This document shows positions 18,001 through 21,000 of a DNA stretch of 52,839 nt, piece by piece (the first letter of the stretch is position 1; each line of letters opens with the position of its first letter). The position numbers are program-made. The stretch is from a virus (lineage: Duplodnaviria; Heunggongvirae; Uroviricota; Caudoviricetes). The stretch lies in IMG/VR virus record IMGVR_UViG_2880372215_000003; one strand, given 5' to 3'.

Positions 18001-21000
18001 TATTTCAAGATTAAAGAAGACCGGCGTAAGGCGGCGCGGGGAGAGTAAAGTGATGAAGAAAAAATACGAACTGGTTGTTAAAGGGATAAATAATTACCCG
18101 GATAAGATTACTGTTACTGTGGCACCGGAAATTGGTGGGTATCCGTCACTGTTGTTGCCAGATGTGGCGATTAGTCTTGACCGTACTGAAGGTGCCACGC
18201 TGGAGTTTTACGAAGCTGAGGCGAAAAAGCAGGCGAAGCAGTTTTTCATGGATGTTGCTGCCGGGTTATGTGAAGGGGATGGTCCGTTGCCGGAAAAGCG
18301 CCCCGTAATTTTAGAGGCGCAGGATGTGTTGATAACCTACAGAGGAAAACTACCGGGAATAATTACGGGTTCTCTGAAGACTCCACCGCTGGCCTGAAGA
18401 CTTAACATATCCAGGGATTTGAAATCGATAAACCCTGATAAATATCCATGAACGCAAAAATCAGATACGGCCTGTCGGCTGCCGTTCTGGCGCTGATTGG
18501 TGCAGGGGCGTCTGCGCCTGAAATCCTCGACCAGTTTCTGGATGAAAAGGAAGGTAACCACACCACAGCATACCGTGATGGTGCGGGTATCTGGACCATC
18601 TGCCGTGGAGCCACCCGGGGGATGGTAAGCCTGTTATTCCTGGCATGAAGCTGTCGAAGGAAAAATGCGACCGGGTTAACGCCATTGAGCGTGATAAGGC
18701 GCTGGCATGGGTGGAGAAAAACATCAGAGTGCCGCTGACCGAACCCCAGAAAGCGGGGATCGCGTCATTCTGTCCGTACAACATTGGCCCCGGTAAGTGT
18801 TTCCCGTCGACGTTTTACAGACGGATTAATGCAGGAGATCGAAAAGGTGCCTGCGAAGCGATTCGCTGGTGGATTAAGGACGGTGGCAGGGACTGCCGTA
18901 TTCGCTCAAATAACTGTTACGGTCAGGTATCCCGTCGTGACCAGGAGAGCGCGCTGGCGTGCTGGGGAATCGACAGATAAGCAGAATATTTTGCTGAAAA
19001 ATGAGGTTTGCTTACATGGACGGATAACACGAAATCCTGCAAATTGGCAAAATGTAAGTGAATAAAGTCAAAGCAGTTGTTTAACACTCAGGCACCGTAA
19101 TGATGCCTTTGTCATTTCTGCGCATCTCACGCGCATCTCACAACACAGAACCTTTCAGGATGACCCTTGAGGATACCGGTTTGGCTGTCGGTGCCTTTCT
19201 GTGGGCTGGATTCCTGTGAGACAAGGTTCATCACTAAAAGGAAATAACCGATGAATATGATGGCCGTGCCGTTTCACGGCAACTCTCTTTATGTAGTTAA
19301 CCATAATGGCGAACCATACGTTCCCATGAAACCTGTCGTTGCGGGGATGGGGCTGGCCTGGCAATCACAGTTGGCTAAGTTAAGACAGCGTTTTGCGTCA
19401 ACTATAACGGAAATCGTTATGGTTGCTGAGGATGGGAAACAACGCAATATGGTGTCCATGCCACTTCGAAAACTTGCCGGCTGGCTACAAACCATTAATC
19501 CCAACAAAGTAAAACCCGAAATCCGCGATAAGGTCATCCGGTATCAGGAAGAGTGCGACGATGTTCTTTACGAGTACTGGACGAAGGGTTTTGTCGTTAA
19601 TCCCCGTAAAATGAGCGTGATGGAAGAACTCAACCAGGCTTGTGCTGACATGAAACGGGATAAAAACATTGCCAGTGTGTTTGCTACCGGGCTGAATGAG
19701 TGGAAACAGGTTAAAGCCGCGCATGTATCAAAAATCCGTACGCTGGTAAATGAAGCGAATATGCTGATTGATTTTGTCCTGGCTGATACAGGCAAAGGGA
19801 AAATAACAAAGGCGGATTGATGGGGTGGCTAATGATATCAGATAAACTCATAACGCTGGTGAAGAGCCTCTGTGTACTTGTCGGCATTTCATTTTTAGTC
19901 ATGCTGGTTGCCATTTTCTTTTCCACCGCCTGGCGAGTCCTGACGTTATCGGGACTGGTGGGGTGAAAGAGAGATGAACCGTGTTCTGTGTGTGGTGATT
20001 ATTGTCCTGGCGGTTGGCTATGGTGCGCTGTGGCTGGCAACAAACCATTACCGTGACAACGCGCTCACCTACAAAGCGCAGCGCGATAAAAAAGCCAGAG
20101 AGCTGGAACAGGCGAATGCCACCATTACTGACATGCAGGTGCGCCAGCGTGATGTTGCTGCGCTCGATGCAAAATACTCGAGGGAGTTAGCCGATGCGAG
20201 AGCTGAAAATGAAACTCTGCGTGCTGATGTTGCCGCTGGTCGTAAGCGCCTGCGGATCAACGCCACCTGCTCCGGTACCGTGCGTGAAGCCACCGGCACC
20301 TCCGGCGTGGATAATGCAACCGGCCCCCGACTGGCAGACACCGCTGAACGGGATTATTTCATCCTCAGAGAACGGTTGATGACAATGCAGAAGCAGCTGG
20401 AAGGGGCACAGGACTATATCCGCACTCAGTGCCTGAACTAAGTTTTGCTGATGCGCCGTATCGTCGCCGTATTCCTGCATTAACAGAGACCGCAGCCCGA
20501 CAGGGAGACTCCTCTGCGAGAGTGTGCGGGGATAATCAAAAACGATACACACCGGGGTTTACCGCGTAAACGGAGCGCGGCGTTCTCCCCTCATGGTCGC
20601 CCGTCCGGTGCGATGGTGGAAGAAACTGGAATCTGTTCAATAAAAAAACTGCCGTGTTGGAGTCACAGCAGTAATGTACTGATTGGGTAGAAGATTATTA
20701 TTGTTATGCTTTATTTTTATTCTATATGGCTGATTATTTCAATTCGGAATTAATACAGCTAATGTCTGTGAGTTTTTATAAATTCAGCAATATAAAGAAA
20801 TAGTTATATGAACAGCCATCGCAGAGCATACTGTGTATCATTCTTTTTTATAGTCAACTGACGGGCATATTTTATGTCTGCTGCCAGCTCCCGGCGGCAA
20901 GATTCAATGACCCACGCAGAAAAATTTTCTGAACCTTTCTGGTCAAGAGCGATGTTAATTTGTTCAATCATCTGGTTTGGAAATCGGATGTTGCGGGTTG

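Follow-up and report, generated by a model that had tools for sequence, protein, structure and literature searches.

The gene at positions 18053..18397 of the IMG/VR virus record IMGVR_UViG_2880372215_000003, a caudoviricete prophage stretch of 52,839 nucleotides that is referred to below as the window, is with near certainty a member of the YdfR/DUF1327 family, the identity of which was already known. The gene is situated between the holin and endolysin genes of the lysis cassette, and we propose that it encodes a late-expressed accessory protein that binds a partner in the host cytoplasm, with the catalytic half of RNase E as the best candidate. We put the probability of this composite reading at around 0.45; the RNase E part taken by itself, which is an extrapolation from the homolog of Escherichia coli K-12, perhaps holds but is doubtful. 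As a sequence feature the gene is ordinary and no discovery, as both the gene and its position have been catalogued before. Nevertheless, it is a conserved lysis-cassette gene in most Shiga toxin (Stx)-converting and many other E. coli prophages, and in that sense it poses a conspicuous problem in medically important prophages.

The family assignment is clear-cut. The 114-residue product matches the Pfam model DUF1327 (PF07041) over residues 1-112 (155.2 bits, where the cut-off is 25; E 5.4e-46), and the PHROG family phrog_406 with an E-value of 3.8e-64. DUF1327 was the sole Pfam match, whereas five PHROG families were matched in total, all of them annotated as 'unknown function' and none belonging to the lysis category; NCBIfam contained no model for the protein. 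An identical protein is found in RefSeq (WP_000731259.1, 'YdfR family protein', E. coli O157-type prophages), the gene of CDC#03-98 that PGAP annotated under the same name is 100% identical at the nucleotide level, and gp44 of the Stx1 phage YYZ-2008 (Enterobacteria phage, YP_002274180.1) is identical across all 114 residues. An earlier reading of the window, made without database searches (the sequence-only reading), had described the gene as unrecognised and of unknown family, which does not hold given its presence in Pfam, PGAP and PHROG. The same reading had allowed that the homologs might represent a common phage gene of known role; they are indeed common, yet no role has been established for them. 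In the literature, 'DUF1327' is mentioned in passing in one paper and ydfR features in one functional study; reviews and surveys of the lysis cassettes of Stx phages do not discuss the YdfR-family gene.

The open reading frame (ORF) consists of 114 codons, with the ATG at 18053 and a TGA stop at 18395-18397, and like all cassette features with coordinates given below it lies on the plus strand. A Shine-Dalgarno sequence, GGGGAGAG (18038..18045), is located within the final codons of the holin gene, 7 nt 5' of the ATG, and the description of a real, well-initiated ORF with a ribosome-binding site (RBS) in the sequence-only reading was therefore correct. An in-frame GTG at 18050 provides an alternative start that would add one residue; the start assigned by PGAP to the identical CDC#03-98 gene is the ATG. 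The protein has a mass of 12.4 kDa and a pI of 5.5 and contains no hydrophobic span or signal-like segment (maximal hydropathy over 19 residues 0.89, versus 1.83 for the holin). On this basis it is predicted to be small, acidic, soluble and cytoplasmic.

For the comparison between loci we used a sample of 80 IMG/VR loci of the window's type, with the assessable subsets being used for the neighboring genes. The ORF was intact at 114 codons in 77 of the 80 loci. The N-terminal domain occurs as two main alleles that share 60% nucleotide identity, and the ratio of non-synonymous to synonymous substitution (dN/dS) between them is 0.24-0.28 at a saturated dS of 1.5-1.8. Given this ratio, the Pfam match and the intact ORF, the comparison indicates that the gene encodes a real protein under purifying selection. 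A chance ORF or a decaying remnant could be suspected because the adjoining endolysin gene, which encodes an rrrQ-type lysozyme with a Gly/Ala-rich N-terminal segment (18448..18980; two Phage_lysozyme halves), is frameshifted in the window, so that the cassette as a whole might be decaying. One G is missing at ~18617 (a run of five, versus six in CDC#03-98; the intact gene of comparison locus L001 likewise differs by a single base), and as a result there are two ORFs of 66 (18448-18648) and 111 amino acids (18645-18980), where the intact and otherwise identical reference counts 177. However, six of the eight single-base indels with respect to CDC#03-98 across 16.9 kb are homopolymer-length differences and a seventh abuts a G-run, for which reason the frameshift, itself a difference in homopolymer length, may have arisen in sequencing or assembly and need not mean that the gene is dead. 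The lysozyme was intact at 177 amino acids in 72 of 76 related IMG/VR loci. Considering also the strong Pfam and PHROG matches, the purifying selection, the intact ORFs and the fact that the K-12 homolog is stable and purifiable (PMC13232886), a non-functional ORF is extremely improbable, and the conservation data refute the reading of the stretch as a non-gene.

The AlphaFold2 (AF2) model, the alignment and the dN/dS values delimit a conserved DUF1327 domain at codons 1-75 (18053..18277). The unit that is conserved within the family counts ~72 residues and has a predicted beta-beta-beta-alpha arrangement of three strands (residues 6-14, 18-27, 38-43) and one helix (50-73); the confidence (pLDDT) was 76-87 across residues 1-70 and below 50 for residues 74-114, with an alignment of 27 sequences. 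Among 17 divergent members, Y53 and E54 never vary and Y5 and V9 hardly do. The window protein carries the corresponding signature Y-E-L-x-V ... (F/Y)-Y-E-x-E-A, in which Y5, V9, Y53 and E54 align with those of 16 divergent members. The remainder, codons 76-114 (18278..18394; PEKRPVILEAQDVLITYRGKLPGIITGSLKTPP), forms a tail that is conserved within Escherichia, with invariant columns at 80-111 and PEKRPVILEAQDVLITYRGKLPGxITGSLKTPP as the Escherichia-conserved segment. The conserved tail of ~40 residues is predicted to be disordered or to form a beta-hairpin (residues 91-96 and 104-109 in a low-confidence model), and is probably flexible.

Beyond the tail the family varies in a defined manner. 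The variants cease to be homologous after codon 112 and become so again ~50 nt upstream of the lysozyme gene; in between lies a variable slot (18388-18447 in the window, and likewise in loci L004, L005 and L023) for in-frame C-terminal modules or ~330 nt of other sequence. The window gene represents the minimal form of 114 residues, in which the slot is empty. The long YdfR-family forms (176, 183, 211, 246, 268, 296 and 305 residues; PHROGs 2091 and 1085) occupy the same position in the cassette and share a core of 112 residues that is 60-98% identical, but differ in having at least one extra C-terminal module (coiled-coil-like, others) after codon 112. These modules matched only PHROGs of unknown function and no Pfam family. 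The possibility of a fused domain of known function in the 296-residue form was pursued as well, but the model was unusable (mean pLDDT 40.6).

The only family member with experimental data is the type member, YdfR of E. coli K-12 (b1555, P76160), which is encoded by the cryptic prophage Qin and belongs to the same Pfam family. Its gene has the same position as that of the window, within the order essQ-ydfR-rrrQ-rzpQ, although the stop of ydfR overlaps rrrQ where the window has a spacer of 50 nt. Over residues 4-73 of K-12 YdfR, the N-terminal domain of the window protein shows 47% identity. K-12 YdfR counts 103 residues, diverges wholly after residue ~70 and lacks the PEKRPVILEAQ...TPP tail. 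Codons 1-72 of K-12 ydfR were recovered in a two-hybrid screen (Gopel et al., RNA Biology 2026; PMC13232886). In the bacterial two-hybrid assay residues 1-72 gave a signal with Rne 1-597, the full-length YdfR fusion interacted only with Rne 1-597, and Strep-YdfR co-purified Rne 1-598 together with DNase-resistant nucleic acid (PMC13232886). Like RapZ, YdfR depends on the catalytic half of RNase E for the contact, and overexpression of YdfR caused no growth defect (PMC13232886). The RNase E-interacting fragment (1-72) is exactly the domain that K-12 YdfR has in common with the window protein. Protein modulators of RNase E include the host proteins RraA, RraB and RapZ and the phage proteins T7 gp0.7, T4 Srd and phiKZ Dip. 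All of these are small and contact RNase E, and the likeness of YdfR to them is a functional analogy and no homology.

Several points weigh against the proposed host partner. The interaction with RNase E was found for a homolog that is 47% identical and under conditions of overexpression, the RNA that co-purified might, as the authors concede, stem from a contaminant, and the overexpression of K-12 YdfR altered few transcripts (PMC13232886). Of the five AF2 models a single one was confident, and no relative of known function was recovered by fold or sequence: Foldseek searches with the confident N-terminal domain against the PDB and BFVD yielded nothing at E <= 1e-3, and a sequence search of the PDB only noise (E >= 0.04). 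Finally, the strict linkage and coupling to the holin, observed at every Escherichia locus examined, would fit a role in lysis timing too.

A double-stranded RNA-binding domain (dsRBD), the fold of which is alpha1-beta1-beta2-beta3-alpha2, gained no support from two comparisons at the sequence level: none of 12 members matched dsrm even at E <= 10, and an hhalign comparison of the family profile with the dsRBD of E. coli RNase III gave a probability of 0.2%.

The window gene is widespread in E. coli. By megablast its 345 nt matched 3006 of the 5426 complete genomes, with as many as 8 places in a single genome, and the complete holin-YdfR-lysozyme segment (S-ydfR-R) matched in 369 phage records, mostly of Stx-converting phages. 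In the IMG/VR sample, all 74 loci that could be assessed have an S21-type holin gene directly upstream (73 of them at a distance of 4 nt), and all 78 that could be assessed on the other side have a lysozyme gene downstream (75 of them at 50 nt). The same gene order was present in all five divergent E. coli loci that were sampled across the ranking, as well as in E. ruysiae and E. albertii. Phage YYZ-2008 shares the order holin-YdfR-lysozyme-Ant-Rz with the window, and has 98.8% nucleotide identity over the S-ydfR-R segment. The sequence-only reading had started from the notion that holin and endolysin genes are usually adjacent, and had taken the gene for an insertion. For this type of cassette the notion fails, as the three-gene order is the norm, and the arrangement is no peculiarity of this phage but standard in the lambdoid/Stx prophages of Escherichia. 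Taxonomically the distribution is narrow: in a scan of one genome per species the Escherichia-type gene was found in Escherichia and Shigella only, besides two contigs of metagenome-assembled genomes labelled Veillonella and Bacillota, which we suspect to represent contamination derived from E. coli. The family is also small, with 96 representatives among 1.84 billion proteins in an exhaustive profile search.

The connection with the holin gene is tight. The distance between the TAA of the holin gene (18046-18048) and the ATG of the YdfR-family gene is 4 nt, and the junction ...GGAGAGTAAnnnnATG was kept in 10 of 11 Escherichia loci compared; the variants seen were aagagag in L005 and TAG in L022. 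Because the RBS resides inside the holin gene at 7 nt from the ATG, translation is probably coupled to that of the holin. No promoter-like or terminator-like sites were found within the S-ydfR-R segment of the window. The sole terminator-like signal near the gene is a hairpin followed by a T-run between nanS-p and the holin gene (17760..17786; 11-bp stem with 7 GC pairs, TTTTTTGTTTT); with Q acting as antiterminator, it is presumably no barrier to late transcription. Given the lack of such sites inside the segment and the conserved RBS and 4-nt junction, the gene is almost certainly co-expressed with the lysis genes, as the sequence-only reading had asserted.

The holin itself (17842..18048; 68 amino acids) is of class II, the phage 21 S-type or pinholin family (Phage_holin_2_1 (P21 holin S), PF04971, E 7e-33). 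Its start is single, the codons at 17833-17844 being ATA CAT CAG ATG, whereas relatives have an ATG at codon -3 and thereby a product of 71 amino acids that begins with MYQMEK or MKSMDK (71-aa forms occur in L004-L006). The latter corresponds to the dual-start antiholin/holin arrangement of phage 21 S, and judged by its single start the 68-residue holin of the window is without a built-in antiholin. Dual-start antiholins are known from lambda (S107) and phage 21 (S71). A link between the YdfR-family gene and the loss of the dual start was considered and rejected, as the gene accompanies both 68-aa and 71-aa holins.

The product could also be a regulator of lysis timing, a soluble antiholin or endolysin regulator made in a fixed ratio to the pinholin, which would bind the charged cytoplasmic C-terminal tail of the holin or the membrane-tethered endolysin and so tune depolarisation. 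The gene directly follows an S21-type holin gene in Escherichia, with its RBS inside that gene and a 4-nt gap, and is itself always followed by the 177-aa rrrQ-type lysozyme gene. Moreover, K-12 ydfR was flagged in the envelope-integrity screen of Paradis-Bleau 2014, as cited in PMC13232886, and T4 RIII, as described in PMC8385771, sets a precedent for a cytoplasmic antiholin. The envelope phenotype of the ydfR knockout could, however, be polar on the downstream lysozyme gene. Like T4 RIII, lambda S107 and phage 21 S71, the YdfR-family protein is small, encoded with or within the lysis genes and could tune the triggering of the holin, but this is a functional analogy only: dual-start antiholins share the membrane domains of the holin, whereas the YdfR-family gene is a separate ORF without a hydrophobic span. 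The PHROG and Pfam searches with the window protein revealed no sequence relation to a known antiholin or lysis family, and its PHROG matches fall outside the lysis category. The occurrence with both the 68-aa single-start and the 71-aa dual-start holins argues against a replacement of the dual-start antiholin, S21-type cassettes without the gene exist (DLP12), relatives in other genera are encoded among tail genes or away from the S-R pair, and the overexpression of K-12 ydfR did not affect growth (PMC13232886). Taken together we regard a role in lysis timing as rather doubtful.

With regard to function, the location of the relatives in other genera is the most telling result, and it bears directly on the accessory nature of the protein that we propose. 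Stand-alone DUF1327 proteins of 72-86 residues and a 145-residue form in Morganella all score above the Pfam cut-off and are all encoded in lambdoid late regions. These non-Escherichia proteins are 25-40% identical to the window protein and have the Y5, V9 and Y53-E54 signature in common with it, but either consist of nothing except the domain or end in another tail, and their genes lie elsewhere than between those for holin and endolysin. The gene is located between the tail genes M and L in Salmonella phage 29485 (L012 2968-3228), a JGI metagenome contig (L013 4001-4231) and Sodalis ligni (L017 4001-4219), between Q and the holin gene in Morganella (L016 4001-4438), where the holin and lysozyme genes are adjacent, and directly after Rz in Cronobacter (L019 1226-1444; L020). 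Conversely, in DLP12 of K-12 the S21-type holin gene (essD) abuts the lysozyme gene (rrrD), with no DUF1327 gene between them. The S, R and Rz/Rz1 genes of phage 21 suffice for lysis by a pinholin and a signal-anchor-release endolysin. Given the other positions in other genera and the S21-type cassettes without the gene, the DUF1327 domain looks like mobile cargo, an accessory that is expressed late, and not like something that the lysis pathway requires. Among the roles that the sequence-only reading had put forward, cargo consequently fits best, while a lysis regulator or antiholin-like factor is a less likely candidate. The behavior is only partly that of a moron. Presence or absence and a variable position are evident, as the gene is missing from DLP12 and is found at M/L, Q/S and post-Rz sites elsewhere, but an own promoter and terminator are not, as neither occurs within S-ydfR-R and the gap to the holin gene is 4 nt. 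Several distant homologs are followed by small convergent genes; a two-gene module with such a convergent gene was considered and rejected, as the four that were translated (80, 96, 99 and 185 codons) displayed no obvious mutual similarity.

Cargo could also imply a part in an arms race, in which the protein would be a late anti-defence or exclusion factor. Its constant N-terminal domain would dock on a partner from either host or phage, its specificity would change with the exchangeable C-terminal modules, and the 114-residue protein would be the minimal form. The moron-like variation in position between genera, the deeply diverged alleles of the N-terminal domain (60% nucleotide identity, saturated dS), the in-frame exchange of modules at a fixed breakpoint after codon 112, which produces forms of 114 to 305 residues, the up to 8 places per genome and the narrow host range (Escherichia/Shigella) of a family with 96 representatives among 1.84 billion proteins are all in line with this. 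Yet the gene is flanked by neither a promoter nor a terminator, and the C-terminal modules match no annotated family. In addition, a search of PADLOC-DB, a library that holds defence and not anti-defence families, with the window protein and five longer or distant relatives returned no family at E <= 0.01. We therefore consider an arms-race function unlikely.

For the late accessory with a host partner, our preferred reading, the course of events could be as follows. The YdfR-family gene would be transcribed as part of the Q-dependent late transcript, in keeping with the gene order and the lack of internal signals, and its translation would be coupled to that of the holin, as its RBS lies in the final codons of the holin gene. 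The protein would then remain outside the holin-endolysin-spanin machinery, would not be needed for disruption of the envelope and would act in the cytoplasm by binding a host partner. By extrapolation from the K-12 homolog this partner could be RNase E (its N-terminal catalytic half), RNA or both, and the effect a modulated decay of RNA late in infection rather than the opening of the envelope. A more far-reaching version, which we deem unlikely to hold in full, has the YdfR/DUF1327 proteins as RNase E-targeting factors that are produced in a fixed ratio to the pinholin. Their N-terminal domain would dock on the catalytic half, possibly together with RNA, the decay of late transcripts (including that of stx in Stx phages) would be reshaped, and the C-terminal modules would alter the targets or the outcome. 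If the protein does tune the stability of late transcripts or the timing of lysis, this bears on the release of Shiga toxin; if it targets RNase E, the expression of late genes and toxin would gain a post-transcriptional layer in over half of the E. coli strains. The RNase E data for the K-12 homolog make this a concrete and testable hypothesis.

The remainder of the cassette contains a second non-lysis insertion, which is common to YYZ-2008 and is located between the endolysin and Rz genes (19251-19966). It consists of a gene of 189 codons for a P22 Ant-like antirepressor N-terminal domain (19251..19820; P22_AR_N E 1.4e-45, ORF11CD3, phrog_524 (anti-repressor Ant)) and an ORF of 49 amino acids. 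The i-spanin Rz follows at 19974..20441 (Phage_lysis, E 4.9e-50), and the gene for the o-spanin lipoprotein Rz1 (61 amino acids, with an LVVSAC lipobox) is embedded in it at 20194-20379.

Upstream of the cassette, Q (13310-13999) is followed by three tRNA genes (14210-14456), a TerB-family gene (14638-15066), a DUF3927 gene (15063-15230) and a gene for a NanS-p-type SASA esterase (15543-17393). Considering that the TerB-family and DUF3927 genes are found where YYZ-2008 has stx1, the gene content identifies the window prophage as a non-Stx relative of the Stx phages. Three RNAs scored above the gathering score of Rfam: the DicF antisense RNA (4223-4274, minus strand), the sok antitoxin RNA (11120-11294, plus strand) beside hokD (~11289-11444), and the small RNA STnc100 (15235-15406, plus strand) just upstream of nanS-p. 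With respect to the CDC#03-98 prophage, 87 of the 98 mismatches are clustered at ~26000-27400, near the start of the portal gene, and a compensating pair of 1-nt indels is present at 26230 and 26234, whereas elsewhere the two sequences hardly differ over the 16.9 kb aligned. This pattern points to a local mosaic patch at ~26000-27400.

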